UHGV virus genome: UHGV-1543656
Source: a virus
DNA: 25,891 nt
Strand: one strand, 5' to 3'
Shown: positions 1 through 25,891 of the stretch, piece after piece
Layout: each line of letters starts with the position of its first letter
How positions within the stretch are numbered: position 1 is the first letter of the stretch
Notes under the pieces: generated by a model
What the model saw: only the letters and a program-made list of their open reading frames with translations
What the model was told of the DNA's origin: nothing
The model's database searches: none
Translations under genes and position numbers: made by a program

Positions 1-52
1 ACAAACTCCCTTTAAAATGGCCGATGGCACCTGTCTATGATAGGTGGCAAAT

Positions 53-403
53 TCAGAAAAGAGAAGATTGCTGTGGAATAGCCGGAACTGCTCCGATCTC
101 TGGAAGCGTTTTACGTAAGTCTTCCCACAGGGTATGTACCAGTTCCGGGGCCTGGGCAATATCTGGCGTATGTAAAAAAAGATAAGGCGTAGTGGTCTGA
201 TGCCACTGTGCTAATTTTTGTAACCAGACCTGAAATAACTCCCGGTTTTGCGTCATATCATCACTACCGATAAAACGGATCAGTGGATTTTTCGCCGTCA
301 GTACAGCATGTACCGGAACTTTAGGTTTTTTTCGTTGAGCGTCGCGAATAGCTTCACTGTGTGGACGTGCTGCATGAACCGGGCGGCTGTCTAAAATCAT
401 CAA
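53..403 (-). pseudogene. yecE: 3' (C-terminal) fragment of a host DUF72-family gene, separated from its 5' part by the ~11.2 kb insertion
   Basis: Track ORF 53..403. Same strand as the 11579..11980 fragment. Joining the two across the AAAATCA core gives an in-frame read VNRVI-LDSRPVH. DUF72/yecE assignment is from memory of the VEGNTT-YALP motif and of yecE as a known lambdoid/Stx phage integration site; not searched. Confidence 0.6.
393..399. repeat. attL core (AAAATCA) of the serine-integrase element
   Basis: Junction read gtctAAAATCAtcaagg: host sequence to the left, element sequence to the right. Confidence 0.6.
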
Positions 404-415
404 GGTCTAAATACA

Positions 416-438
416 CTATGAGGTTGATTCCTAGAACA
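416..438. repeat. 23-bp repeat ctatgaggttgattcctagaaca, copy 1 (abuts attL)
   Basis: Its perfect reverse complement is at 767-789 and a degenerate third copy at 1173-1204. Confidence 0.7.
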
Positions 439-754
439 TACCTGTTAATAACAGGACATAAACAGGTTAGTACCTATGCAATTTAACGGTGTATTTATGC
501 GCTATCTATGCAATTCTACACAGATTCTATGCAGTATCAGTATAGTCTCTTTTTACCCTAACTTATTGAAATATATAGAGAATCTGTGAAGTCTCTTTTC
601 AGGGTAAACTGTATCGTGTTAGTCGTCCCTCTCTCGACTCCTAGAAAAGTGCTATATACAGGAGTATATAACGCTATTCATGCAGTTGGTCACCATACGT
701 TACAGTTGCAAGAGATAACAATCAGCTACGTGAAAGTTAGAAAGTGATGGTTAC

Positions 755-789
755 AGTTGATTCGGTTGTTCTAGGAATCAACCTCATAG
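755..789. repeat. Inverted copy of the 23-bp repeat, extended 5' by agttgattcggtt
   Basis: tgttctaggaatcaacctcatag is the exact reverse complement of 416-438. The related copy at 1173-1204 shares both ends (agttgattcggtt ... aacctcatag). Confidence 0.7.
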
Positions 790-1519
790 TTACCTTGTCA
801 AATCTTCGTAGTCCCTTCTTAAAAAATCACTTACAGACACCTTAATATCTATACAGATTTCATGTAGAACACGATTAGTGCGTAAAACAGCTATTATGTT
901 AAAAACGTACTGTATATGTATCAGTACTGATTTATAAGGGTTTTATGTATTTGAAGATAAGAGGCTATACAGCACCTTGAGAGCATGTCTTGTAAGTCAT
1001 TGATACATAAGGTCACAGAAGTTTGTGTCTGTTAAAGAGAAAACTGGGGAGGACTTCACAGGACTATAAAATGTTACAGCTATTGATAGGTTAAATCTTC
1101 TTGATAGATGCTGTGAAATGTGATGAAGGTTTTTTTGAGGTGGAGCTAACAGATGCTATGAAGAAAGTCAATAGTTGATTCGGTTTATCGAATAAACCTC
1201 ATAGATATTTTAAAATTCTGCAAAGGGGGTCACATAGCTGGTGTGACGGGTACTTAGCAGCTACAGACATCTGTCAGATATTTTCGAAGTTTTTTAGAAG
1301 GGGAATTTGAAGAGGGGCTACTACGATTTTATAAAAATTTTCAGAGTCTGAAAAGTTACTGTACAGATTTAATACAGATATCTTTAAAGTATCTGTAAAA
1401 ACTTTTAAGATAAAAGATAGATATCCCAGAAAGGATATCCGTTTAAAAAACCTGTTAAGTATCTCTTAAAAGAGAGTAAACCTTGTCAAGAGTGATTGCA
1501 ATAAAAAATTTTATTTCTT

Positions 1520-2182
1520 ATGTCAATTGAGCATATTTTAATCGGGAAGCATCATGGTGGTTCTGATGACTGGCGTACACCGTATCGTTTATTTCGTAAC
1601 CTGCATCGTGAATTTGGTTTTTCGATGGATGGTGCTGCAACTAAGCATGACGCATTGCTACCACGGTTCACCGATGATATCCACAATCAGTCATGGGTTG
1701 GTGAAAAGGTATTCTGTAACCCACCATACAGCGATATTCCGTCGTTCCTCTTAAAAGCGTCTGAATCAGATTTAGCGGTATTCCTGATACCGTACCGACC
1801 CCACACCACATACTGGCTTAAGCACATCTTCACAAACCCGCTTTGCCATGAAATCCGTATTCTTCATCGCGCAGTTAAATACCTTCCACCAGCAGGGCAT
1901 AACGGGCTTACTACTAGGTCACCGTTTGCTGCTGCAGTCGTTGTTTTTAAAAAAGAATCACGCAGGCATGAAATTACGCAGATGGTTTGCTGTGCTGACA
2001 CGCTATTACCGTTAACCATCATTAACCGTGGTGGACTAAGAGGAAGACCCACCATTTACCCACCTGAGACGCTCGACAGCTTCATAAAGCTATACAGGCA
2101 AGGAAAACCCATTAAGTGCATTGCAGATGCTCTCAGAATGCCTCTGAGCACGTCATACAGGATTGCTCAAAGGTTGGGCTAA
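1520..2182 (+). CDS. Phage-type N6-adenine DNA methyltransferase (Dam family) with C-terminal HTH
   Basis: DDWRTPYRLF...EFGFSMDGAAT...ALLPRF...FCNPPYS matches the catalytic NPPY motif and the upstream pattern of phage Dam methyltransferases. C-terminus IKCIADALRMPLSTSYRIAQRL looks like a resolvase-type HTH. Confidence 0.75.
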   Translation: MSIEHILIGKHHGGSDDWRTPYRLFRNLHREFGFSMDGAATKHDALLPRFTDDIHNQSWVGEKVFCNPPYSDIPSFLLKASESDLAVFLIPYRPHTTYWLKHIFTNPLCHEIRILHRAVKYLPPAGHNGLTTRSPFAAAVVVFKKESRRHEITQMVCCADTLLPLTIINRGGLRGRPTIYPPETLDSFIKLYRQGKPIKCIADALRMPLSTSYRIAQRLG

Positions 2183-2565
2183 AATTCTCATAAATATGGT
2201 CATTTACAAGACAGGCGATTCAGATATTAAGAAGTATTCCTGTGAACAATAAATGACCAATCAGTAATTATTCTGTGAAATAATTGTTGCAATTTATAAT
2301 CACACATGGTATAGTTTCATAGTGGGCTGATAAAAGAACTCAGAACATTAAGAGGTTACAACGTTGGGAGGCGTCAGGGTATTGACGGATTTTCACGGCC
2401 TCTTATTCAATCAAGGCTTTTCCTTTTGCTGTTAATACTCGCGTAATCACTTAGATTTCTGGGTTCCTTTATCAGTCCATCTTCTAATTAATTCACTCCC
2501 TCTGGGGTTGGTCACTATACGTGGTCAGCCCTTTCTTTGTTTTATTTTTAAAAAGGAAAATATAA

Positions 2566-3527
2566 TGGAAAAATTTCACATGTTTGATGACCGTATTTAT
2601 CAGATGACTAATGGCGTTAAAGCTGCCGACCGTATTATTTACACTGTCATGTTGAATGAACAAAAGTTTTATCACGATAAGGGGCAATATTATACCCCTT
2701 CATATGCTCATCTTGGTCAGTATGCTGGAATCACAAGAACATCCGTGATTGCATGTATGAAACGACTTGAGGCACATGGTTTAATCAAGAAAACTAACGT
2801 TGCAAGCAATCAGTGTGTTATTAAAGTTTATTCACTTGATGAAGTACCGGAAGTTTTAACAGAGCTTACAGCTAAGGAAGCCAGAAAGGCAAAGCTGGAG
2901 TCTAAAGTTACTCAGTCAGTCAAGAAAGATGACCCACTGAGTCAAAATTCTTTACCCACTGAGTTAAAATTTTTTACTCAGTCAGTCAAAATCTTTGACA
3001 CGTATAATAACAGTAATAACAAGAAAGAACTTATTAATAACAATAAAGAAGATGACTTTGAAGAAGAATCTCTTAAGAAGGGAGCTTCGCTCTGTGATTC
3101 ACATGAATGTGATTCTCTTGATATTGAAGAGGCTATTAAAGAGACTGTTAAAACATCTGACTTAGATGACCTTGATAGTGAAGCTACTAAAGAGGCTGTT
3201 AAAAAGGAAGATAAAATCTCTGATGTGAATGAAGTTAGTGACCAGCAAGATACACCTTGCCGCCTCGAATCAACTGATGATGAATTACCGGATGTTGACC
3301 TTGATGATGAAGAAGACCCTGAAGAGGAATTGAAACGTGAACAGCGTAAAGCAGAAATTAAAGAAAGATTCAGAAAGGCTAAGCTAAAGAACAGAATTGA
3401 TGAACTTGATGACTTTGATGATAGTGACGATGATGACTTTTCTTTCACACCAAAAAAGAAAACCCACACTGAACCGAAGAAAGAAAAAGTGAAAGTAAGA
3501 CGTATTTATGCTGGAGGTATGCGCTAA
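2566..3527 (+). CDS. Winged-helix DNA-binding protein (replication-initiator or regulator-like) with long acidic low-complexity C-terminal region
   Basis: Track ORF 2508..3527; start moved to the in-frame ATG at 2566 (MEKFHMF), which has an AAGGA-like RBS. N-terminus ...AGITRTSVIACMKRLEAHGLIKK resembles a wHTH. C-terminal ~180 aa are D/E-rich with K-rich stretches. Confidence 0.45.
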
Positions 3528-3817
3528 TGAAAGAATTTCACGGTGAAAAACGATACAAAGATTACCTGTTAAAGCGTTACAGCATTTCTCGTGAGGGTCA
3601 CCTTATGAAGGATACTTATGGGGAGGTTTACCGGATTCGACCGAAGAAAGAAGGGAGGGATTATTATTTCGTCGATGGTGTGACAGATTTAAAGATTGAC
3701 GCTTTGAGGTTTGCAGTGCTGTATCATTATGATATCTGGGATTCAGTCCACCAGCTACGATTAAAAGACGGTGACCCCGGTAATCTGAGGGCCACCAATA
3801 TCATCACAAAACGTTAG
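3527..3817 (+). CDS. Hypothetical protein, possibly HNH_3-like nuclease fold
   Basis: Start overlaps the upstream stop, suggesting translational coupling. YYFVDGV...VHQLRLKDGDPGNLRATN weakly resembles the HNH_3 / NUMOD-type pattern. Low certainty. Confidence 0.35.
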   Translation: MKEFHGEKRYKDYLLKRYSISREGHLMKDTYGEVYRIRPKKEGRDYYFVDGVTDLKIDALRFAVLYHYDIWDSVHQLRLKDGDPGNLRATNIITKR

Positions 3818-4071
3818 TTTGTTTTACCATCATCAATCGTAATTGTGATTTCATATTTGAAAAGCTTAATGCTGAAATTGAATCGTGTACTTTTGGCGAT
3901 AATCATTTTTAAAAGCTGATACACCAGAAGCACCAGAAACACAAAGCAACCTAAGCTTGCGAATCTGTGAGATTCAGCAATTGTTTCAAGAAAACCCATT
4001 AACTCCCCTTATTTATCAAAGGGAATGACCTGTATCAGCCCCTATAACCATATTAACATGTAAATGAGTTG

Positions 4072-4100
4072 TTGACAATATGTTAAATATATGTTAAGAT
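4072..4100 (+). promoter_or_regulatory. Sigma70-like promoter with a direct-repeat operator in the spacer
   Basis: TTGACA (4072-4077), 17-nt spacer, TAAGAT (4095-4100). The spacer carries the direct repeat atatgttaa / atatgttaa. Followed by RBS TAAGGAG (4121-4127) and ATG at 4136. Confidence 0.5.
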
Positions 4101-4135
4101 TGTAGTATGAGTAAGAGATTTAAGGAGATTTTACA

Positions 4136-4426
4136 ATGACTCACACAGTTACACGCCTTTTGCCAGAGGCATTTGAACGACTGGCAGCAATCAAAGCTAA
4201 ATATCCCGATATGAAGCACACAGCGCTTGTTGGAGAGCTTTTAAAAGAGTCGGTATCCCTGACCCCTTTCGATAACGTTAAGGGTGTTGCAGAGGGTTCT
4301 AAGGCCATCAGAATCACAACGGGCCAACTGGAACTACTCAAAGCACAGTCCGCAGTAGCAGGTTGCTCAATGATTCAGGTGTTGAGTGCTAAGGTCCATC
4401 AACTGGCGGATAAATTGGAGGTTTAA
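4136..4426 (+). CDS. Small regulator, ribbon-helix-helix-like
   Basis: Strong SD TAAGGAG. N-terminus TRLLPEAFERLAAIKAKYPDMKHTALVGELLKESV fits the beta-strand plus two helices pattern of RHH (CopG/Arc) proteins. Confidence 0.45.
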   Translation: MTHTVTRLLPEAFERLAAIKAKYPDMKHTALVGELLKESVSLTPFDNVKGVAEGSKAIRITTGQLELLKAQSAVAGCSMIQVLSAKVHQLADKLEV

Positions 4427-4647
4427 TGTGTTACAGGTTCCAATATTCCACACTTGGCAGCCACCTAATCAGACAGAATTTAGCAGATGCTGAATTTGAA
4501 GATGTGACCCTCAAAGCAAACAAACGATTAAAACCCTCTCAAATCCACCAGCTTAAACACGAATTAAAGCCACTGGTAATACTCGACTATAACGACCCTG
4601 AACAGCTTGAGCAGGGAATTAAGCTTATTTCTGAATGGGGTGCTTGA
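4426..4647 (+). CDS. Hypothetical protein
   Basis: ATG overlaps the upstream stop (TAATG); GGAGG sits 4 nt upstream. Confidence 0.5.
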   Translation: MCYRFQYSTLGSHLIRQNLADAEFEDVTLKANKRLKPSQIHQLKHELKPLVILDYNDPEQLEQGIKLISEWGA

Positions 4648-4862
4648 TGAAAACTATCACAGTACAACTTCAGACTAATAAAGCATTTCGTTATTTTGAA
4701 AACTTGCTTGAGTTATACGAAGGATGGGGAAGCATCCACGGCAAAGATGATATCTATCTTCACTTGTCAGCCCCTAACTATTCTCTGAAGGCTCCGGTTA
4801 AGCAAAGCTGGTTAAAAGACTACGGTCACCAGATGGGGCTATTAGTCTCAGACTTGAGCTAA
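4647..4862 (+). CDS. Hypothetical protein
   Basis: Track ORF 4635..4862; start moved to the in-frame ATG at about 4647 (MKTITVQ), where the start and the upstream stop overlap. Confidence 0.45.
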   Translation: MKTITVQLQTNKAFRYFENLLELYEGWGSIHGKDDIYLHLSAPNYSLKAPVKQSWLKDYGHQMGLLVSDLS

Positions 4863-5008
4863 AAACAGTAAAACATATCTCTCAGGCTTTACCAGACGAA
4901 TTCTAAGCGATTTTAAGCCCCTAATCAGGGTAACTTAGGGAATCGCCTTAAGTGGTCTAAAAAAGGGGTTAAAACGTCTTAGAATGCGATACAGGAAGGA
5001 TTTTAAAA

Positions 5009-5314
5009 ATGAATTATTCAATGCAAGTTATGGTTGACCAAGAAACTATGAATTGGCTTAATGACCTGAACAGGTCGGGCTTTAATATCTATTTCATGCA
5101 TTGTTTTGAAGCGTCAACGTATATTGACAAGCATATAATCAACGAAATTAAACTTGGTGACTTTGTTCATAAACTGGAAGTAACAGACCCAGACTACAAG
5201 AGATTTATCACAAGCGAATGCAACCGACTTGATTTAAGCCCGGAGCAATTATTGAAGCTGAATGTATTCTTGACCTATCAGAATGAATTAAACCCTTACA
5301 GTGAGGTGATGTAA
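5009..5314 (+). CDS. Hypothetical protein
   Basis: Track ORF with GGAAGGA-like RBS upstream. Confidence 0.5.
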   Translation: MNYSMQVMVDQETMNWLNDLNRSGFNIYFMHCFEASTYIDKHIINEIKLGDFVHKLEVTDPDYKRFITSECNRLDLSPEQLLKLNVFLTYQNELNPYSEVM

Positions 5315-5391
5315 TGACACTCGTTATTCTCTGGACGGTTTTAGGGCTATTTGTTGGTTGCTGGGTAGGTAATACGGTAAATAAGAATTAA
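5314..5391 (+). CDS. 25-aa hydrophobic peptide (MTLVILWTVLGLFVGCWVGNTVNKN), small membrane peptide
   Basis: Below the track length cut-off. ATG overlaps the upstream stop (TAATG) and has a GAGGTGA RBS 4 nt upstream. One predicted transmembrane helix with a polar tail. Confidence 0.45.
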   Translation: MTLVILWTVLGLFVGCWVGNTVNKN

Positions 5392-5415
5392 TGTTACCAA
5401 TCTGTTAAAAAGCTG

Positions 5416-5444
5416 TTGACAAATAACCTTAAGCATGACATAAT
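5416..5444 (+). promoter_or_regulatory. Sigma70-like promoter (TTGACA-17-CATAAT)
   Basis: TTGACA at 5416-5421 and CATAAT at 5439-5444 with a 17-nt spacer. Confidence 0.4.
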
Positions 5445-5450
5445 TTTAAT

Positions 5451-5645
5451 TATAGAGAGAATTGCTCTCTTATTTCTTTCAACAATTCCATCTACATCTA
5501 GGGATAGTTATTCTGAAAGGTGCAATGCTTTTCGCTACATGGCCTCTTATATAACCTGAGAGGTCATCTCGAAAAGTGCTTAATCATTCATTCATTGAAC
5601 CCTTTACAGCTTTGCCCTAATCATGATTAGGGCTTTCTTTAAGAG
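5451..5645 (+). ncRNA. Candidate small non-coding RNA, promoter to terminator with no ORF
   Basis: Starts just downstream of the promoter above. 5' hairpin agagag-aattg-ctctct at 5454-5470. Ends at the terminator 5614-5640. Longest internal ORF is under 10 codons. Confidence 0.25.
5614..5640 (+). terminator. Rho-independent terminator
   Basis: Perfect 20-bp palindrome gccctaatca/tgattagggc followed by TTTCTTT. Confidence 0.65.
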
Positions 5646-5886
5646 TTTTTAAACAGAACTTTTAAAGAAAGTTTTTCCTGAAACTTCGTTAACGTTATAA
5701 AGCAAACCTCCAAAGCCCTTCACAGATAAGGATGATTCCATGAATATCCGAATCACCTATGTTTAGGGCTTTTTCAGCTTTTAAAAAGCATACTTGGCAA
5801 ACCGCCTTTTAAGTCTCTTCTAAGTTTAGATAGGCTGTCAGGTGTGCTTTTTAAAAACTGAATATTACTTAGAAGAGGAAAATGAA

Positions 5887-6594
5887 ATGGAAAATCTATA
5901 TATTAACGGTAAAAAGATTGATAGCTTCGGTGACTGGTCACCACAGACTGAACATCCAGCTATCGCTATTCAGCGCAAAGAGCACGATGAAAGAATTGCA
6001 CTTGAGCAAGAGTTAAAGATGTCACCAAAGGAAATCATCTTTGTGACTCCTGAACCTCAAGAGATGCCTGATGTATGCAAAACTGAATCATTACTTGAGC
6101 TTGAGCGTGAATATTACCCACTACTGAAAGCACAAAGAATTAAACTTGATATTGCTTACGATGCGGTTAAGAACTTCGAAGAAACCTCGAAACCTTCAGA
6201 ATATGATATTGCTTACGAGATTAAGTCAAACCCGTTTATCTATTATGAAGGAAACTTTAATGATGGTTTTGGTACAGCGATTGAAGACGTTCCTAAAGTT
6301 CTTCAAAGTATCCCTGAAGGGTTCCGGTTAATTGATGTCAGACAAGCATTAAGGGGTTCTGGTCAATTTATTTTGACGACTGATAAAACAGATGAAGAGA
6401 TTCTTCAGTTAGCTGAAGCTAATTTGACTAAGCATTATTCCGGTAAACTGGATAAGTTAAAGCAAAAGCTTAAAAAAGAACTTGATAGCATGAAAGCGAT
6501 TATTAGTGACTATGAAACGCAGAAGAAGGTTGCTATGCAGGCTGATATTGAGCAGTTAACGAAGATTTCTCAGAAATACAGCAAAGCACTTTGA
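5887..6594 (+). CDS. Hypothetical protein
   Basis: Track ORF 5842..6594; start moved to the ATG at 5887 (MENLYING), which has an AGAGGAAA RBS. Confidence 0.55.
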   Translation: MENLYINGKKIDSFGDWSPQTEHPAIAIQRKEHDERIALEQELKMSPKEIIFVTPEPQEMPDVCKTESLLELEREYYPLLKAQRIKLDIAYDAVKNFEETSKPSEYDIAYEIKSNPFIYYEGNFNDGFGTAIEDVPKVLQSIPEGFRLIDVRQALRGSGQFILTTDKTDEEILQLAEANLTKHYSGKLDKLKQKLKKELDSMKAIISDYETQKKVAMQADIEQLTKISQKYSKAL

Positions 6595-6617
6595 TTATGA
6601 ATTAAAAGAGGTGATTA

Positions 6618-6827
6618 ATGTTTGAAGAACGTTTAGAGACTATTCGGTCTGTTTGTGAAAACTTAAAGTTACAAACTAAGCCAGCCTTAAGAATTAAAAC
6701 CAAACATCAAATTATCACCTCACGCAAACCAAAAACACGCAAGATTCCAAAGTGGTGTATCGACCGTATCCCTTCCGATGCTCAAATTATAGGTGAAACG
6801 GAACTACATTATCTTGTCAGGCATTAA
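6618..6827 (+). CDS. Small basic hypothetical protein
   Basis: Strong RBS AGAGGTGA just upstream of the ATG. Confidence 0.5.
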   Translation: MFEERLETIRSVCENLKLQTKPALRIKTKHQIITSRKPKTRKIPKWCIDRIPSDAQIIGETELHYLVRH

Positions 6828-6876
6828 AAAAGATTGGTTGGGTGTATGAGATAGGTTCTATCGAATCTATAACACG

Positions 6877-6918
6877 GGGAGAGATTATCGATATTATTCG
6901 GTAGTTTCTCCCTTTTTT
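6877..6918 (+). terminator. Terminator-like hairpin followed by a T6 run
   Basis: gggaga ... tctccc then tttttt. The loop is long, so this is uncertain. Confidence 0.35.
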
Positions 6919-6925
6919 GTATGTG

Positions 6926-6996
6926 TGCTACGTGAAATCTTCTGAACAGATATACCCACCAAAAATTATTTTTTACGTAGCTCACGCTTAACAGAG
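6926..6996 (+). promoter_or_regulatory. Conserved 71-nt cis-element, copy A, upstream of the tape-measure-domain gene
   Basis: Terminal blocks tgctacgtgaaatct and cacgcttaacagag are identical to copy B at 9071-9141, with the same 57-nt offset between blocks. Internal blocks atacccac and ttacgta are shared. Confidence 0.55.
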
Positions 6997-7010
6997 GTGA
7001 AATATGAACA

Positions 7011-9059
7011 ATGGCACAATTTAAAGTTGATAGTTTTATCGTTGAGCTAGGCTTCAGCGAGAACGTTATTAAGGGCTTGCAAAGAGTTGAAAAGGCAGCT
7101 TTGCAGTCAGCACAAAGAATTGAACGTAATTTGAATAGAGCGTTTAAGGTCGATACCAAGCAACTTGACAGCAATCTGACAAGTTCTTTAGGGCAACTTG
7201 AAAGGAAGTTTAATAAGACCTTTGACAAGATTGAGCAGCGTCTTAAAAACACTAGAGCGTTTAAGATTAAAACGGAAATTGAGGATACTTTAAAGCCACT
7301 TAGACAGCCAAGACAGCCACGAATTAGCGGCAACAGAGCAATCACAGCGGCTTATTCAGCGAATATGTCTAAGCTGAAAGGTCTTAACCCAATTGTCGAG
7401 AAATACATTAAGAGTCAGTTTTACGCATTAAGTAGTAAATCCAAGACACTTGGAAACGAAGCTTTTAATCGTGAGTTAGCAAAGTTAAATCAAAATCTAC
7501 GTGAAACACTTTCTAAGTTTAACAAGACCACCAGCAAAAATAATCACAGTGAAAATGCTTCAAATGGTTTAGATGTACTAGCTTCAAGTGCAATTAAAGC
7601 GGGTACGGCTATTTACACTTTTCAAAGTGCTTTGGCAGCTTATCAGCGAGTAATGGAAATTGGTTTACAGCGTGCAAGTGCTGAACGTTCAATTGATTTC
7701 GTATTTGATAAAGATGCAGGTCAGGTAAAAGAGTTCACAAAGTCATTAGCTCAAACAACGGGTTTAGATATCGCTGAACTGCAATCACAGTTTGCTGGTT
7801 TCGGTGCTTCAGCTAAAGAGTCTATGGGTATTCAAGGTTCTGAAGAACTTTTTAGAAGTATGATTGGCTATTCTCGTCTGATGGGTCGAAGTGAAGAAGA
7901 GATTAAGCGAGCACTGACAGCATTATCACAGATGGCTGGTAAGGGTCAGGTTATGGCTGAAGAGCTTAAGGGGCAACTAGCTGAAGCTGTTCCTGGTATG
8001 GTTCAGGTATTCGCTAAAGCAACCGGAAAGACTGAACAGGAATTATTTGATGCCATGAAGAAGGGGGCTTTAAAATCTGCCGATACTCTTCAGAAGGTCA
8101 CTCAGGAACTGAATAGACAAATCACCGCTAAAGGTGGCTGGAAAGCTATTTCAGAAAGTACACAGGCACAATTAGGGAACCTGAAAAACTCTTGGAATAC
8201 CACGCTTGATAGTATCTTCAGAGGTTCTGAAAGTGGTCTGCAAGATTTTACAAGAAGCTTAACAACGCTTTTAAACGCTCTTGGTGGAAGTGGTAAAAGT
8301 CTTGGTGAATCTCTTGGTAGCTTGATGACTGATATGTCACATGGTGTCGATAGTCTGGCCGATATTAGTTACAAGGTGCGAGCGTTCTTTGATGAGGTGA
8401 CATTAGCTTATCGTGGTTTAACCGATGAACAAAAGAAAGTTGTTGATGCTTTAGGTTCTGGCTTGATTAATAGTTTAAAAGTCTTGGCTGGTGTTATTGC
8501 TGTAAATAAAGTTGTTGGTGTAACCAGAAGTATTTACGGGCTTATGACTGCTATCACAAGATTAGGTCAGGTTGCTGATACTACAGCGGATAACGTGAAT
8601 AGAAAGAATGGGAAACCATCAAGACTGAATCTTGGGAATATGCTATTAGCTGGTAGCGCTCTCTATGCAGGTTATGAAAGACTAGCCTCTACACCTGAAC
8701 GAATGGAAGCACAAGCTAAATTACCAGAGTTAGCTAAAGAATCTGGACTTAAGCCAGTATTTACTATGGACGATGTGAAAGGTTGGTTTAATAGTGCAGC
8801 TATGAATCTTGCTAACTTCCAGCATCCAGAATTAATCACCATGAGACAAGATGCGGCATTAACGAATACGGATATCCAAAGCCTGAGAGATGAAATTAGT
8901 GCTTTGAGCAAACGTATTCAGGAGCCTGTGAAAGTTTCACTTGGTGGTGAAGTTGCCATTAAACCAGATGAAACCAGCTTTATGACCTTTAGCAGTAATA
9001 TCTACGACCAATACGCAGAAGCTACGCTATTAAGTTCATCATTCCCAGAAGATGATTGA
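7011..9059 (+). CDS. Protein with phage tail tape-measure-type domain
   Basis: 682 aa. Central segment SEEEIKRALTALSQMAGKGQVMAEELKGQLAEAVPGMVQVFAKATGKTEQELFDAMKKGALKSADTLQKV matches the tape-measure domain signature as I recall it. N-terminal part is predicted coiled coil. Confidence 0.55.
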   Translation: MAQFKVDSFIVELGFSENVIKGLQRVEKAALQSAQRIERNLNRAFKVDTKQLDSNLTSSLGQLERKFNKTFDKIEQRLKNTRAFKIKTEIEDTLKPLRQPRQPRISGNRAITAAYSANMSKLKGLNPIVEKYIKSQFYALSSKSKTLGNEAFNRELAKLNQNLRETLSKFNKTTSKNNHSENASNGLDVLASSAIKAGTAIYTFQSALAAYQRVMEIGLQRASAERSIDFVFDKDAGQVKEFTKSLAQTTGLDIAELQSQFAGFGASAKESMGIQGSEELFRSMIGYSRLMGRSEEEIKRALTALSQMAGKGQVMAEELKGQLAEAVPGMVQVFAKATGKTEQELFDAMKKGALKSADTLQKVTQELNRQITAKGGWKAISESTQAQLGNLKNSWNTTLDSIFRGSESGLQDFTRSLTTLLNALGGSGKSLGESLGSLMTDMSHGVDSLADISYKVRAFFDEVTLAYRGLTDEQKKVVDALGSGLINSLKVLAGVIAVNKVVGVTRSIYGLMTAITRLGQVADTTADNVNRKNGKPSRLNLGNMLLAGSALYAGYERLASTPERMEAQAKLPELAKESGLKPVFTMDDVKGWFNSAAMNLANFQHPELITMRQDAALTNTDIQSLRDEISALSKRIQEPVKVSLGGEVAIKPDETSFMTFSSNIYDQYAEATLLSSSFPEDD

Positions 9060-9070
9060 TAATAGTCGAA

Positions 9071-9141
9071 TGCTACGTGAAATCTGTAAAGCTAATACCC
9101 ACACTGAAAAATAGAATTTACGTACAACACGCTTAACAGAG
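9071..9141 (+). promoter_or_regulatory. Conserved 71-nt cis-element, copy B, upstream of the 264-aa gene
   Basis: See copy A. The 11-mer GCTACGTGAAA also occurs at 726-736. Confidence 0.55.
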
Positions 9142-9216
9142 AAAACACTTATATATCAAAGGCTTGGTTAAAAATGATTAAAATACACTAAGCCTTTGAA
9201 ATCAAAGGGGAATTTA

Positions 9217-9990
9217 ATGATTTACTCTAACCAAATCAAATATAGTGGCAAAGACGGCATCTATTTCCACTTAAGAGATAATGTAGATGCCTTCTTAACC
9301 TTATCAGCAACTGAAAACATGGAATTTGATAGTCCTATGCAGGTGACTACACAGAACATGCAATCAGGACAAACCGTTACAGATAATGTGCAAAGAGCAC
9401 CCAGAACAATCACTATTAGTGGTGTCGTTGTAGTTGGCTATGAAGGAAGCTTATTATTAACTCGTCAGGGTCAATTAGTAGAAAACTTCATCGACACTCT
9501 TGAAAGCTGGCGTGACCAGAAACAGATTATTTCGGTCATCTGTAAAGACGGAATTAAAATTGACGATTCCATTATTACGAGTTTTAAAGCCTCTAAAGAT
9601 GTGGGGATTTCAAACGGTCTAAGAATCCAGCTAACTTTTCAGGAAATTAACTTCAAAGCTATTGTTGGTCAGACTGATATTTCTGCTGCAACTGGAAAGA
9701 CTGCTACCACGAATGATGGTGGTGCAACTTCTAAGAAGAACACTGGTAACACTACGACAAGTCTAGGTAATGGTATGTTGCTGTGTCAGGAGCTATATAA
9801 TCGCTCTACGAGTGAACTCACTAATGAGCAACTTCAAGCCCGTATCAATTGTGGTAAAAGTGTCAAAGTTGAGAATGGAAAAAGCACCTTCTCAGATGCC
9901 GCTAATGCGCAAGCTTCAAAGGTGCTTAATAATGCTGGTACAGGTAGTACTTTGAAGAAATTTTCTGTGAATCCTAACAAGCGATTCTGA
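9217..9990 (+). CDS. Hypothetical protein, possibly virion or tail-tip associated
   Basis: Track ORF 9196..9990; start moved to the ATG at 9217 (MIYSNQ), which has an AAGGGG RBS. Beta-rich N-terminal half and a Thr/Gly/Asn-rich linker. Functional guess rests only on its position after the tape-measure-domain gene. Confidence 0.4.
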
Positions 9991-10004
9991 CGATAGAATC
10001 TCAA

Positions 10005-11528
10005 CTATATGATAACCTCATCAACATCTATCAACCCCCTCTCAGTGACTTCAGAAAGCGACTGTATAGCCTCTGTAACGTCCTCTGAGGGGGTTTCTGT
10101 TATTGGTAGGGTGATTGACTTACTATTGTGAAAAGTTACTTTACAGCGACGTTTAGCAGTATTTAAAATGACCTCTTTAACAGCACTTTTGATTATCAGT
10201 TGTGCTTCAATCCTTCCCGCCTTTGTAGTCAAGTCACAATCAGACAAACAACCAACATCAATAGATTTAAGGCGTTGTGTCTCCTTCTCGATATCCGCAT
10301 CAACCTGTGATAGCTCACCTTTTAACTGTTTTAGTTTGCTGGTAATAGCGGACAAGTCTTCAATTTCAAGTGATAGCTGTACCAGCTTTTCAATATTGCT
10401 TGAGATGTGTTCACGGTGTAGCTTCAGTGTGTCTATGGTATTCGTCATATCGCTATCAAATCGGTCTATACGGGATAGCAGGGCAAGCAATGTACCATCG
10501 GTTTGCTTACGTGAAAGTCCTTTAGCACTACAACGGTTTTCATTACGAAGAGGACAACGATAAATCCCGTTTCTTGTATCGCTAAAGCCTGTGATAATCA
10601 AAGCATGACCACATTCAGAACAACGGATAACACCTTTGAAAAGATTCACACTCAATGGTTTATCTGAAGCAGGCTTTCTTCCATAACGAGAATATGATAG
10701 TTGCTGGACTTTGTAGAAATCAGTCTCAGGGATGATAGGGGGGAAATAACCAGCTATCTCCTCACAGCCTTTAGGTGTGAAGTAACCAATTACAGAGCGA
10801 TTTTTCAGAAGGTCTTGCACTGAGGTTTGACCAAACTTACCTGCTTTGTACTGGTTAAGTGTCTGGTGACCTTCATCATTAAGAGTCCTGACAATCTCCC
10901 AAATAGACTTACCCTCTAACCGTAATTGAAAGCACCTCTTCACAGTTTCTACCTTCTCAGGTATCACAGAGAAGGTCTTACGGTCATCATTAAGCTTAAG
11001 CCATGCAGGACAACGCTTATAAATCTTGATACCGGCTTTAGCAGCTTCTTTCTTTGCATCCCATGCAGCTTGGATACGTTCAGATTTACGCAAACTCTCC
11101 TCATGCGACCGCTGCATTATCAAAATGCTTTTAATCAGAGCTAACGGGTCTTTTAAGCTTTCCTTTGTGTAATGTTCACCATCGGACAAGGTGACCACAT
11201 CTACACCAGAGCGAAGAATGTTTCTGAGTAGCTCACTTGCTTGGTCTACATCTTGACGTGACAGACGGTCAAGAGATTCTATCAAGAGCGTATCACCAGC
11301 TTTAACAAGCCCTTTCTCGATAGCGGTTAAAAAGTCACCTAAGCCACCTTTCAAGTGCTTACCAGTGAACCCACTCACCCCCAAATCACGAAAAGATAAA
11401 TCTTGGTCAAGGTAGTACTCAGGATGAGCCTTAAGCCAGTCATTAACCATCTTAGACTGTCGGCGTAATGAATCACCTCGGGATTGCTTCTCAGATGAAA
11501 ACCTGATGTAAGAAATGGCACGTTTCAT
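10005..11528 (-). CDS. Large serine recombinase (integrase)
   Basis: N-terminal resolvase-type catalytic domain (YIRFSSEKQ with the catalytic Ser, then SLDRLSR). Followed by a recombinase domain, a Cys-rich zinc ribbon (CSECGH...YRC) and a C-terminal coiled coil. Sits next to attR. Confidence 0.9.
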   Translation of the reverse strand: MKRAISYIRFSSEKQSRGDSLRRQSKMVNDWLKAHPEYYLDQDLSFRDLGVSGFTGKHLKGGLGDFLTAIEKGLVKAGDTLLIESLDRLSRQDVDQASELLRNILRSGVDVVTLSDGEHYTKESLKDPLALIKSILIMQRSHEESLRKSERIQAAWDAKKEAAKAGIKIYKRCPAWLKLNDDRKTFSVIPEKVETVKRCFQLRLEGKSIWEIVRTLNDEGHQTLNQYKAGKFGQTSVQDLLKNRSVIGYFTPKGCEEIAGYFPPIIPETDFYKVQQLSYSRYGRKPASDKPLSVNLFKGVIRCSECGHALIITGFSDTRNGIYRCPLRNENRCSAKGLSRKQTDGTLLALLSRIDRFDSDMTNTIDTLKLHREHISSNIEKLVQLSLEIEDLSAITSKLKQLKGELSQVDADIEKETQRLKSIDVGCLSDCDLTTKAGRIEAQLIIKSAVKEVILNTAKRRCKVTFHNSKSITLPITETPSEDVTEAIQSLSEVTERGLIDVDEVII

Positions 11529-11578
11529 TGTTCACCTCAAAACTGATGCCCTAGATTGTATCGTTTTAGATGGTGTAT

Positions 11579-11980
11579 TTAAACGTGTCTAATAAAAATC
11601 ACCCGATTAACGCCGCGCTGATGTAAACCGCGATTAAGCGTTTGTTCCTCTTCCCCTTTGGCGAAAAACTGTGGATGGCGGACTTCCACCCCATAATTAA
11701 ATTCACCGGGAAGAGAATCGAGAAAATGCCAAAGCGCAGGCAGCTCCCGTGGGCCGAATGTGGCAGGCAGTTGCAGCCAGTATTGTCCAATGCGCGGAGC
11801 CAACGGTGACATGCGGGTCAAAAATTCAGTCACTAAATCATCGCAATGCCGTAATGCTGCCTGATGCGAAATGGTCGCCGGAAACTTAAAACAGAAGCGG
11901 AAGTCATCTGTGGTCTGCTCACGCCAGCGCAGGACAACCTCGGGTTTCGGCAGGGCATAAAGCGTGGTGTTACCCTCCAC
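11579..11980 (-). pseudogene. yecE: 5'-proximal fragment of the host DUF72-family gene, truncated at its 5' end by the prophage and at its 3' end by the serine-integrase element
   Basis: Track ORF starts at a GTG. The in-frame upstream sequence has no ATG back to a stop at about 12038. NCVEGNTTLYALP matches the conserved N-terminal motif of DUF72 proteins. It continues in frame into 53..403 once the insertion is removed. Confidence 0.6.
11595..11601. repeat. attR core (AAAATCA) of the serine-integrase element
   Basis: Junction read aataAAAATCAcccgatt: element sequence to the left, host sequence to the right. Confidence 0.6.
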
Positions 11981-12006
11981 GCAGTTAACATGACGGGTAT
12001 TAAGGA

Positions 12007-13320
12007 TTAACTTACTGATTTTAATAAGCCTCTGGTGTCACTTTGGTGACTATGGGGCATCATTGGGACATAATCTGTCAGCTTCTGATTCAGCATTGCG
12101 ATCTGTTCTGCATTGCTGTCAGTCATCCATGCTCCGTATACATTGAATACCATCTGGGCACTTGCATGGCCCATCTGGCTGGCAATGAAGCTTGGGTTTG
12201 CTCCGGCAGATAATGACCAGCACGCATAAGTGTGTCGTGACTGGTATGCCTTTCGATGCCTGATCCCTGCACGCTTAATGGCTGTTTCCCATGAGTCACC
12301 TACAGAATCGACTTTGTAGACAAAACCTACCTGTTCGCTTTTTCTAACCACTTGAGGGTTAAACACGAAAGTACATTCATGGTTCACTGAACGTCCATAT
12401 TCACGTAGTTGCACCTTGATGTTGTACTGCTTACCCAGTCTTGTCATTTCAGCCTGATTTTTCAGGACACTGATAGCGGGCTGGATAAGGTGCACAACCC
12501 TGTTTGTGCTTGCTTCAGTTTTCGGTAGAGTGAACTCACCAAGTTTCGTATAATTGCGCCTGATGGTAATTGTTCCTGCCTTCAGATCGATATCTTCCCA
12601 GGCCAGGGAGACCAGTTCACCGTGACGCATTCCTGTGTACACAGCCAATGACCACAGGTTTTTCGTCTGCTGATGTCGGCAAGCATCTATCAGGCGAATA
12701 AATTCGTCACGAGTTAGCGGATCTGGCTCTGCCCTGGCTCTTTTAAGAGGCTTAATTCCCTGGAAGGGATTTGCTTCTAAGTAACCGTGATCTGCAGCAA
12801 ACTGAAACATTCCAGCGATTGTCGTCATGTAATAATTTACAGTAACGACGCTCCGTCCTTTTGCTGCTGCTTTGTTTTTCGTTGAATTCTGATACCCGGT
12901 CAGCAAATCTTTCCTGATATACAGCAATTCCTCTTTGGTTACCGATGACACCAGTTTACTGCCTCCAATTTTCGGAACCATCGTTCTTGCAACGGATTCA
13001 TAGCGATTGAATGCATTTGCAGAGATTTCCATTCGTTTCAGATCCAGCCACTTTTCTTCAAGTTCCTTCACCGTAATTTCTTTTTTACTTACCCCAAAAG
13101 CCTGAAGGTTGGGGGAGTCAGGGAACTGTGCAGCATAATCAAAGCTTCCTGTGCGGATGGCAAAACATACTGATGTCCGCAGTTCCCCGGCGATCTTCCT
13201 GTTCTTGGCAGTGTCAGGGACACCAAGATTTTCCCTGACACGTTTACCTTTAAAATTAAACCAGATGCGTAATGTGCCGCCGTGGTTTTCGACGCCTGTT
13301 GGATATTTGACTTTATCCAT
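12007..13320 (-). CDS. int: Tyrosine-type phage integrase
   Basis: C-terminal catalytic region HRKAYQSRHTYACWSL...GHASAQMVFNVYGAWM carries the R..HxxR..Y signature. Located at the prophage end next to xis. Confidence 0.9.
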   Translation of the reverse strand: MDKVKYPTGVENHGGTLRIWFNFKGKRVRENLGVPDTAKNRKIAGELRTSVCFAIRTGSFDYAAQFPDSPNLQAFGVSKKEITVKELEEKWLDLKRMEISANAFNRYESVARTMVPKIGGSKLVSSVTKEELLYIRKDLLTGYQNSTKNKAAAKGRSVVTVNYYMTTIAGMFQFAADHGYLEANPFQGIKPLKRARAEPDPLTRDEFIRLIDACRHQQTKNLWSLAVYTGMRHGELVSLAWEDIDLKAGTITIRRNYTKLGEFTLPKTEASTNRVVHLIQPAISVLKNQAEMTRLGKQYNIKVQLREYGRSVNHECTFVFNPQVVRKSEQVGFVYKVDSVGDSWETAIKRAGIRHRKAYQSRHTYACWSLSAGANPSFIASQMGHASAQMVFNVYGAWMTDSNAEQIAMLNQKLTDYVPMMPHSHQSDTRGLLKSVS

Positions 13321-24932: not shown

Positions 24933-25891
24933 ATGCATTCAATATCGTTTGCTGAGGTGACCGTGAGAGCACTGCTGACCCCTGAAATTGCCCCGCGTAT
25001 GGGGATTGTATTGTTCAGGCCCGGTTCAGAGCTGATGCCCCTGTTTATGCAGGGGCGTGTCCTGCTGGAGCCTGAGCCGGAACGTTATTCATCTTTCGCC
25101 AGCGGTGCCGTTCCGGCGGCATCACAACCGCTGGCGGATGATCCTGCCGTTCGGGCCGTGTTCCGCAATGAGGCAGTGATCCGTCGTGCTGGTGGCGTGG
25201 AATGTCTTGAAAGCTGGTTACTTCGTGAAAAAGGCTGCCAGTGGCCTCATTCCGACTGGCACAGCGAGAACATGACCACAATGCGACACGCTCCGGGTGC
25301 AATCCGTCTGTGCTGGCACTGCGATAATCAGCTGCGCGATCAGTTCACGGAACGGCTGGAATCAAGGGCAACGGATAACTGTGCCCGCTGGGTGTTGTCT
25401 GTTGTGCGTCGGGATCTCGGTTTTGATGACAGTCACGTTGTGACAATGCCGGAACTGTGCTGGTGGCTGATTCGTAATGATCTGGCGGATGCCTTACCGG
25501 AAAGTGCAGCCCGTAAGGCACTGAGATTACCGAAGCCTGTTGTGCCGACTGTTACCCGGGAAAGTGACCTTGTGCCTTCGGTTCCTGCCACCAGCATCAT
25601 CCGGGATAAGGCGAAAAAGGTGCTGGCGCTGAAAGTGGATCCGGAGTCGCCGGAGTCTTTTATGTTACGCCCAAAACGTCGCCGCTGGGTTAATGAAAAG
25701 TACACGCGCTGGGTTAAGACGCAGCCGTGTGCATGTTGTGGAAAGCCTGCTGATGATCCCCACCATCTGATAGGCCACGGTCAGGGGGGAATGGGTACAA
25801 AAGCGCATGATCTCTTTGTGTTGCCTTTGTGCAGAAAGCATCACGACGAGCTGCATGCGGATACCATGGCATTTGAAGAGAAGTATGGCTC
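24933..25891 (+). CDS. DUF968-like protein with C-terminal HNH-like Cys/His motif (partial, runs off the window end)
   Basis: Open frame to the window end. C-terminus CACCGKPADDPHHLIGHGQGG...LPLCRKHHDELH. Start codon uncertain: ATG at 24933 or GTG at 24963. Confidence 0.5.
   Translation, partial: MHSISFAEVTVRALLTPEIAPRMGIVLFRPGSELMPLFMQGRVLLEPEPERYSSFASGAVPAASQPLADDPAVRAVFRNEAVIRRAGGVECLESWLLREKGCQWPHSDWHSENMTTMRHAPGAIRLCWHCDNQLRDQFTERLESRATDNCARWVLSVVRRDLGFDDSHVVTMPELCWWLIRNDLADALPESAARKALRLPKPVVPTVTRESDLVPSVPATSIIRDKAKKVLALKVDPESPESFMLRPKRRRWVNEKYTRWVKTQPCACCGKPADDPHHLIGHGQGGMGTKAHDLFVLPLCRKHHDELHADTMAFEEKYG

Follow-up and report, generated by a model that had tools for sequence, protein, structure and literature searches.

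The closest described counterparts of the element reported here are the PLEs of Vibrio cholerae. Every PLE encodes a tape measure protein (TMP) together with a tail assembly chaperone, and a baseplate hub is present in some; the identity of these proteins to their counterparts in the lytic myophage ICP1 is 19-41% (PMC11838301). The TMP and hub of the PLE are built into virions in place of those of the phage, the tails become ~10 nm shorter, and deletion of tmp in the PLE lowers transduction by 96-99.9% (PMC11838301). In this study, we analysed the virus genome UHGV-1543656 of UHGV, a stretch of 25,891 nucleotides (the whole of which is referred to as the window), and focused on an island of 11,202 bp inserted within the yecE gene of Escherichia coli. 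The island parallels the PLEs: it has a large serine recombinase (LSR) and an initiator of its own, its counterpart is a virulent myophage, and parts of the tail interior would be substituted. On these grounds, our reading is that of a Felixounavirus satellite making chimeric tails. In our judgement, the island is rather probably an integrative satellite, or phage-parasitic island, of Felixounavirus myophages, and not of the prophage that neighbours it in the window.

The gene calls described below rest on profile searches against Pfam, PHROG, NCBIfam, PADLOC and PDB (Table 1). Both the PLEs and the island are small chromosomal LSR islands with their own replication initiator and a noncoding control/origin region, both have a strictly lytic myophage as counterpart, and capsid, portal, terminase, tube and sheath genes are absent from both. 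They also share a TMP of their own that is distant from that of the phage (27% identity in the island, ~20% in the PLE), together with a protein of the baseplate centre (PMC11838301). On the other hand, the host and phage of the PLEs are V. cholerae and ICP1, whereas the host of the island is Escherichia and its phage relatives are Felixounavirus. The second tail gene of the island encodes a tail tube initiator (TI), of which the core is almost identical to that of the phage, whereas the PLE hub is only 41% identical. We recognised neither a tail assembly chaperone by tmp nor a TcaP-like scaffold nor other PLE factors in the island, and its replication initiator-like (Rep-like) protein matched replication initiators in PHROG, with no match to RepA_N in Pfam. 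PLEs are also larger (~18 kb vs 11.2 kb). The likeness was judged from gene content and published descriptions. We rate the island as following the same satellite logic as the PLEs, but in a new family, a new host and a new phage group, and with a tube initiator instead of a hub.

When the whole element was compared with 50,697 phage records, the only matches were to Felix O1-like virulent myophages (Felixounavirus, Ounavirinae). The TMP of the island is collinear over its full length with the TMP of the Felixounavirus garuso (682 vs 735 aa), with 27% identity overall. Identity rises to 82% over its first 45 residues, and both proteins carry the C-terminal motif LLSSS[FY]PE[DE], the body in between being divergent; at the DNA level, the first 136 nt of the gene show 79-87% identity to Felixounavirus. 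The closest phage TMPs (27-31% identity) all belong to Ounavirinae, outside which no phage was found with a TMP collinear along its entire length or with a close TI. The TMPs of the elements themselves constitute a narrow clade, and the next relatives among 1.8 billion representatives are proteins of 740-760 aa at ~35% identity.

The TI gene directly follows the TMP gene, in the same order as garuso_118 and garuso_119. Residues 5-185 of the TI are near-identical (~99% in the core) to gp18 of phage Bas63, which is chain A, 'Tube initiator protein gp018', of PDB 9NDY, and positions 9232-9775 of the window are 93% identical at the nucleotide level to more than 200 Felixounavirus phages. Comparison of the core with garuso yielded a nonsynonymous divergence (dN) of 0.007 and a synonymous divergence (dS) of 0.35, i.e., a dN/dS of ~0.02, which indicates long-standing purifying selection to remain compatible with the phage and no very recent transfer. 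The last ~70 residues diverge from gp18; this C-terminal arm is conserved inside the element family, and the corresponding nucleotides found no match in any phage record. In Bas63, the gp18 hexamer provides the transition from the threefold hub to the sixfold tube, the C-terminal arm of gp18 traverses the baseplate alongside spacer proteins, and the last 25 residues of the TMP touch the hub and the puncturing device (PMC12609058). The GC content of the island (38.8%) is close to that of garuso (38.9%), compared with ~51% in the host and 47.8% in the lambdoid prophage. Besides the phage-like TI, a second type (type B), ~80% identical to the former, was noticed in two related islands, L002 (11992-12765) and L006 (14707-15477).

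A further likeness to the phages lies in the noncoding DNA. Phage Pr103Blw bears a direct terminal repeat (DTR) of 581 bp (PMC8303462; record MW481326), and the right boundary of this repeat corresponds to ~1254 in the window, within a collinear segment (Table 1). The overlapping stretch 1380-1493 resembles, in inverted orientation, the leader upstream of garuso_96 (58-nt match, E 1e-11), a gene that opens a long rightward block containing a tRNA cluster and structural genes. The segment reached a local alignment score of 111, whereas dinucleotide shuffles gave 33.6 ± 5.7 (z = 13.5). The DTR-boundary locus and the garuso_96 leader were the two top-scoring windows of the entire phage genome. 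Both phages and the element variants that align across the stretch have the blocks ATATTT, TTTGCAAAG and AGATATTTT without variation; most of TTTTATAAAAA is conserved as well, with a one-base shift in two element variants. We regard 1204-1493 as a candidate packaging site or phage-responsive regulatory site.

The TMP and TI genes are each preceded by a copy of a ~75-nt motif. The motif holds a CTTAACAG box, the reverse of CTGTTAAG, which is the repeat filling the phage DTR, and an internal inverted repeat (CTACGTGAAA / TTTACGTAG). Copy A is conserved in two relatives (L013 and L014), and the motif as a unit was not found in the phage genome. The motif may be a promoter or an operator answering to a phage protein.

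The island is well delimited. K-12 yecE (DUF72) aligned to window positions 1-399 and 11595-12000, with an overlap of seven bases, AAAATCA; because both alignments share this heptamer, the core is placed at 393-399 and 11595-11601. One copy of the core is present at the empty site of K-12. The flanks (50% GC) were matched in 5,426 of the 5,426 complete E. coli genomes, so that the context of the window is an E. coli chromosome. The original prediction for this stretch, drawn up by a model before any database search, had outlined an ~11.2 kb AT-rich element bounded by a 7-bp direct core in a host open reading frame (ORF), with a large serine recombinase at one end and a 1.1 kb ORF-free repeat region at the other, and the present data agree with this outline (recombinase at 10005-11528 on the minus strand; ORF-free region at 400-1519). 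From 11980 onward to its end at 25891, the window carries a lambdoid prophage with a tyrosine integrase (12007-13320), an excisionase and early genes. The prophage is an independent second insertion near the 5' end of yecE with its own junction, and yecE therefore holds two unrelated mobile elements side by side.

The LSR possesses the catalytic, recombinase and zinc beta-ribbon domains (Resolvase PF00239, 1.6e-20; Recombinase PF07508, 8.6e-15; Zn_ribbon_recom PF13408, 3.5e-7; PHROG integrase phrog_95, 6e-77), and short identical cores are found at attL and attR, as in LSR integrative elements. We sought the attP junction by exact match in metagenome contigs, and the reconstructed attP (GTGTCTAATAAAAATCATCAAGGTCTAAATACAC), flanked by an imperfect inverted repeat (GTGTATTTA / TAAATACAC), was present inside a single one, L014 (ERZ1090866 NODE-760, 11,473 bp). 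In this contig, which is collinear from the LSR end to the left end of the element, the two ends are joined directly, and the only breaks fall in the acidic repeats of rep and at a sequencing adapter; thus, a relative of the island occurs in circular or head-to-tail concatemeric form. The element evidently inserts into yecE and can leave it via the LSR acting at the 7-bp core. Among the ~11 kb Logan/ENA contigs checked, attP was found in L014 only, and IMG/VR gave no attP match. Other contigs of this size were considered as circular forms and rejected: L010 ends in IS2, and L013 and L029 end 30-70 nt into yecE, which we regard as assembly breaks. Breaks 30-70 nt outside the att cores were seen on both sides of the island in several short-read assemblies (L013 and L029, from Logan). 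Such breaks would be expected if one sample contained both occupied and empty yecE sites, owing to either a strain mixture or ongoing excision.

If the island is genuinely a Felixounavirus satellite, infection by the phage would trigger its excision and replication, and the TMP and TI would be expressed from the duplicated ~75-nt upstream motif. The two proteins would then replace those of the phage in the complex of hub, TMP and initiator that nucleates the tail tube, so that tails would become chimeric, by analogy with what has been demonstrated experimentally for the V. cholerae PLE and ICP1. From the lengths of the TMPs (682 vs 735 aa), such tails would be ~7 nm shorter, which corresponds to two tube rings. 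The phage terminase would package the island DNA via 1204-1480, a putative mimic of the terminal-repeat boundary. As a side effect, phage tail assembly would be disturbed, which would shield the host population. For induction by, packaging by and transfer with the helper, the evidence is indirect: the phage-identical TI core, the DNA resembling the DTR boundary, the matching GC content and the attP circle.

Several points weigh against this interpretation. Induction, replication, packaging, incorporation of the TMP and TI into virions and control of capsid size are all steps that we infer from sequence, and neither a tail assembly chaperone nor a capsid-size factor nor a terminase partner was recognised among the island proteins. 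Only one of the DTR boundaries is mimicked by the island, and 1204-1493 also resembles other control regions of the phage, so that its function may lie in regulation and not in packaging. The type-B TI of L002 and L006 has no near-identical counterpart in a sequenced phage, the best being ~70% identical in Suspvirus, which hints at either an unsampled phage lineage or independent drift; with the best phage identity of the L006 protein at 70%, there is no evidence that the TI types track the sampled phage lineages. The attP contig could be a product of spontaneous excision. No virome or phage-lysate contig with the island was found, and the IMG/VR matches to its 235-aa core protein are prophage calls from isolate genomes.

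Among other explanations, the most serious is that the island is a non-transmissible defence island, in which the TMP and the altered TI act as dominant-negative decoys poisoning Felixounavirus tail assembly and nothing is packaged. A TI with a phage-identical core but a swapped baseplate arm, and a TMP that retains only the docking termini, are what such decoys might look like; interference with tail assembly is already known as a means of defence (Tai, PMC11364771; Tab, PMC10884400; Rta, PMC11838301), and we found no packaging proteins in the island. Nevertheless, the replication module, the conserved size of 11.0-11.6 kb, the DTR-like segment and the use of several att sites point to horizontal transfer, no PADLOC defence model was matched beyond an orphan methyltransferase, and the same kind of gene is required for transduction in the PLE. 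We consider the decoy explanation unlikely, albeit it overlaps with that of a satellite, as satellites usually interfere with their phages as well. Tai, Tab and Rta of PLE11 share with the proposed function of the island the point of attack, tail assembly around the TMP, but they are single small proteins without relationship to structural ones, whereas the candidates in the island are full-length structural homologues.

The original prediction had proposed the adjacent lambdoid prophage as a possible helper. A satellite of this or another temperate phage would accord with the physical adjacency of the two elements, both in the window and in strain JNEC-KY173, and with the temperate helpers of most known E. 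coli satellites. However, the TMP and TI belong to a virulent group with contractile tails, the prophage, which has a tyrosine integrase and a junction of its own, was inserted separately, its GC content differs from that of the element (47.8% vs 38.8%), and the family occurs both in yecE without a prophage and at yciI-tonB; we give this alternative hardly any credence. A decaying prophage remnant with leftover tail genes and no current function would explain why there are just two structural genes and why some copies carry insertion sequences (e.g., IS1203 in the TMP gene of O157:H7), yet we hold it to be improbable: the compact architecture and intact ORFs recur in the relatives examined in detail, the family is present in 570 complete genomes, the TI is under strong purifying selection, the att sites are intact and an attP circle was found, and no variant retains capsid, sheath or tube genes. 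Moreover, all retrieved Ounavirinae are lytic isolates, no integrase was found in garuso (full genome) or Pr103Blw (genome ends), and lysogeny genes are reported to be absent from the Felixounaviruses described in PMC8303462 and PMC11737134. It is very improbable, too, that we are dealing with an integrative mobilisable or plasmid-like element, moved by conjugation or transformation, in which the tail genes are incidental cargo. Its own Rep-like gene, the LSR and the small resolvase in relatives would suit such an element, but profile searches detected no relaxase, oriT-type or conjugation gene, none of the 815 matching places is on a plasmid, and the conserved core consists of the TMP, the TI and the phage-like noncoding block, with the Rep module being the variable part.

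Among the satellites known from E. coli, P4 is comparable in that it resides in the E. coli chromosome, replicates on its own and takes all of its virion parts from a myophage. At ~11.6 kb, P4 is similar to the island in size, and it carries the cos packaging site of its helper; an analogous mimicry is proposed for the island. In contrast to the island, P4 encodes no tail protein and has a temperate helper, and its tyrosine integrase, alpha primase-helicase, Sid, Psu, Delta and alpA were not found in the island by searches against Pfam, PHROGs and NCBIfam. PICIs, cf-PICIs and PICMIs are likewise phage-dependent islands with att sites, and the PICMIs of Vibrionaceae have virulent helpers too and are packaged as concatemers (PMC10803314). 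PICIs and cf-PICIs use tyrosine integrases in place of the serine integrase of the island, in which profile searches found no alpA/stl, pri-rep, terS, ppi or capsid module. The island is the converse of the cf-PICIs, which make capsids and steal tails, in that it has parts of the tail interior without capsid parts. Since none of their marker genes was found, the island stands outside P4-like elements, PICIs and cf-PICIs, just as the original prediction held. The original prediction overlooked the V. cholerae PLEs, a described satellite family of like logic (LSR, initiator, a virulent myophage as host, and own TMP and baseplate protein in chimeric tails; PMC11838301). In the full-text literature, in which subscription journals are mostly outside coverage, we found neither a published description of the island family nor any work pairing Felix O1-type phages with satellites.

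Of the 5,426 complete E. coli genomes, 570 yielded related islands; a single genome has as many as five matching places, and all the matching places are chromosomal. The elements are 10,980-11,604 bp in size and their TMPs 682-726 aa in length. Copies in yecE without a neighbouring prophage were found in ECCNB20-2, O157:H7 Vac_07.1 and EC-TO75 (L002, L005 and L007), and a copy at yciI-tonB (L006; FORC_029) has an LSR that is 34% identical. The conserved core of the family comprises the noncoding region, proteins of 235 and 69 aa, the TMP, the TI and the LSR. The Dam/Rep module can be exchanged and was swapped in L005 and L007; in L005, the left module consists of AP2/ERF and HNH genes in place of Dam and Rep. 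The TMP gene of L005 is split by IS1203 (8469-11860), and this copy of the island is presumably inactive. A scan with a TI profile over one genome per species, in which two exact peptide patterns limit sensitivity, detected the family in E. albertii only. SpLE2 of O157 Sakai, considered as a named relative, turned out to be an unrelated CP4-44-like island. It is about an even prospect that the entire family, found in Escherichia and close relatives (Shigella, E. albertii, E. fergusonii and some Salmonella) and in ~10% of complete E. coli genomes, represents PLE-like satellites of Felix O1-type phages that form chimeric tails, are packaged by DTR mimicry and blunt the phage.

With an LSR and a Rep-like gene, and with the TMP and TI as its only structural genes, the island has the general make-up of a satellite (Table 1). 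The expected Dam methyltransferase-HTH (helix-turn-helix) fusion and the winged-helix Rep-like protein with a hyper-acidic tail were both borne out by the profile searches, albeit the Pfam matches of the latter to DnaD_N and wHTH are weak, and the expectation that capsid, portal, terminase and major tail genes are lacking held as well, sheath and tube genes being likewise undetected. Of the tail genes foreseen, the TMP stands, and the supposed tail-tip gene, 'Dit-like' by profile searches, proved to encode the TI. The possible HNH nuclease at 3527-3817 had no profile match in this copy, although HNH_3 genes exist in relatives, and the micro-operon led by a ribbon-helix-helix protein gave no matches. 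The tiny membrane peptide is so far a hydrophobic ORF of 25 aa only. Seven small ORFs of 3527-5391 are kept in the relatives of the Dam/Rep type.

Table 1. Features of the yecE island, in window coordinates
Feature	Position	Strand	Evidence or remark
attL core AAAATCA, left junction in yecE	393-399	.	K-12 alignment breaks at this point
ORF-free control region, family-conserved	400-1519	.	Candidate iterons CTATGCA x3 at 474/506/527; TACAGAT repeats
Perfect 24-bp inverted repeat	415-438 / 767-790	.	Encloses 328 bp; third partial copy 1190-1204
Phage-like noncoding segment	1204-1493	.	1204-1480 collinear with Felixounavirus terminal-repeat right boundary; 1380-1493 inverted leader likeness
Dam-type N6-adenine methyltransferase + C-terminal HTH fusion	1520-2182	+	PF05869 7e-16; HTH_7 3e-4; phrog_111 2e-27; PADLOC orphan methyltransferase
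Replication-initiator-like winged-helix protein, long very acidic tail	2565-3527	+	phrog_8102/428/678, 3e-11 to 2e-7
Small gene, no family	3527-3817	+	Pfam/PHROG/NCBIfam/PADLOC searches
Small gene, no family	3814-3999	-	Pfam/PHROG/NCBIfam/PADLOC searches
Small gene, no family	4136-4426	+	Pfam/PHROG/NCBIfam/PADLOC searches
Small gene, no family	4426-4647	+	Pfam/PHROG/NCBIfam/PADLOC searches
Small gene, no family	4635-4862	+	Pfam/PHROG/NCBIfam/PADLOC searches
Small gene, no family	5009-5314	+	Pfam/PHROG/NCBIfam/PADLOC searches
25-aa hydrophobic ORF, no family	5314-5391	+	Pfam/PHROG/NCBIfam/PADLOC searches
Core family protein, 235 aa (o5887), mostly helical, 66-residue C-terminal helix	5887-6594	+	Present in all relatives
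Core family protein, 69 aa, basic (o6618), no family	6618-6827	+	Conserved in relatives
Strong terminator downstream of 69-aa gene	6876-6913		
~75-nt motif copy A, upstream of TMP gene	6924-7000	+	TGCTACGTGAAA…ATACCCAC…TTTACGTA…CACGCTTAACAGAG
TMP, 682 aa, Ounavirinae-type	7011-9059	+	PF20155 3e-20; phrog_4036 2e-77; PDB 9NDY_F (Bas63 gp17) 2e-63
~75-nt motif copy B, upstream of tube-initiator gene	9070-9145	+	Duplicate of copy A
TI, 257 aa, element-specific C-terminal ~70 aa	9217-9990	+	PF21821; PDB 9NDY_A 2e-129
LSR (integrase), 507 aa	10005-11528	-	PF00239 + PF07508 + PF13408; phrog_95
attR core AAAATCA, right junction in yecE	11595-11601	.	K-12 yecE alignment

The 235-aa core protein (o5887) is 25-90% identical across all relatives and forms ~3,100 clusters. 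The named sources of its homologues include Escherichia, Shigella and Salmonella; when more diverse homologues were sought with a profile, nothing beyond sequences of ~86-90% identity was returned. The label 'transposase' given to it by PGAP in many genomes is unsupported, as searches of Pfam, NCBIfam and PDB linked the protein to no transposase and to no other family either. Its AF2 model (pLDDT 58) was too poor for a fold search. Its N-terminus (YINGKKID) is faintly like that of a phage tail assembly chaperone (VINGKKVN), with an hhalign probability of only 1%. Tail assembly chaperones were considered for both o5887 and the 69-aa o6618 and rejected, the hhalign probability against phage chaperones being at most 1% and no PDB chain being similar. 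A role of the helical 235-aa protein in capsid-size control would be only a guess.

The control region at 400-1519 shows 75-87% nucleotide identity among relatives, even beside swapped genes. It contains no Rfam family and no tRNA, and its count of σ70-like promoters is not above that of shuffles. In the same region, three relatives carry a gene for a small serine recombinase (Resolvase + HTH_7, ~185 aa), the orientation of which varies (L025, 191-739; L031, 547-1098; and L029, in which the gene is flanked by the same motif as the 24-bp repeat, inverted, at 109-129/1537-1557). The 24-bp repeat region is likely the remnant of such a cassette, which may have served as an invertible switch or for multimer resolution before its deletion in this copy.

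In the literature surveyed, satellites with virulent helpers are known from Vibrio (PLE and PICMI), Streptococcus thermophilus and Streptomyces, and none was found for E. coli, of which the named satellites all have temperate helpers. If our interpretation is correct, Enterobacteria would have their first known satellite of a lytic phage in this island, and satellite-made tail interiors would have originated a second time, independently; the strategy would then have arisen more than once. It would also offer a tractable E. coli model for asking why satellites swap the tape measure and the tail-tube initiation complex, a question left open by the work on PLEs, and the near-identical TI core with its swapped baseplate arm would amount to a natural experiment on tail nucleation. 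In the papers retrieved, Felixounaviruses are studied with a view to typing, biocontrol and therapy in both E. coli and Salmonella, and the islands would be a hidden factor in the host range and yield of these phages.

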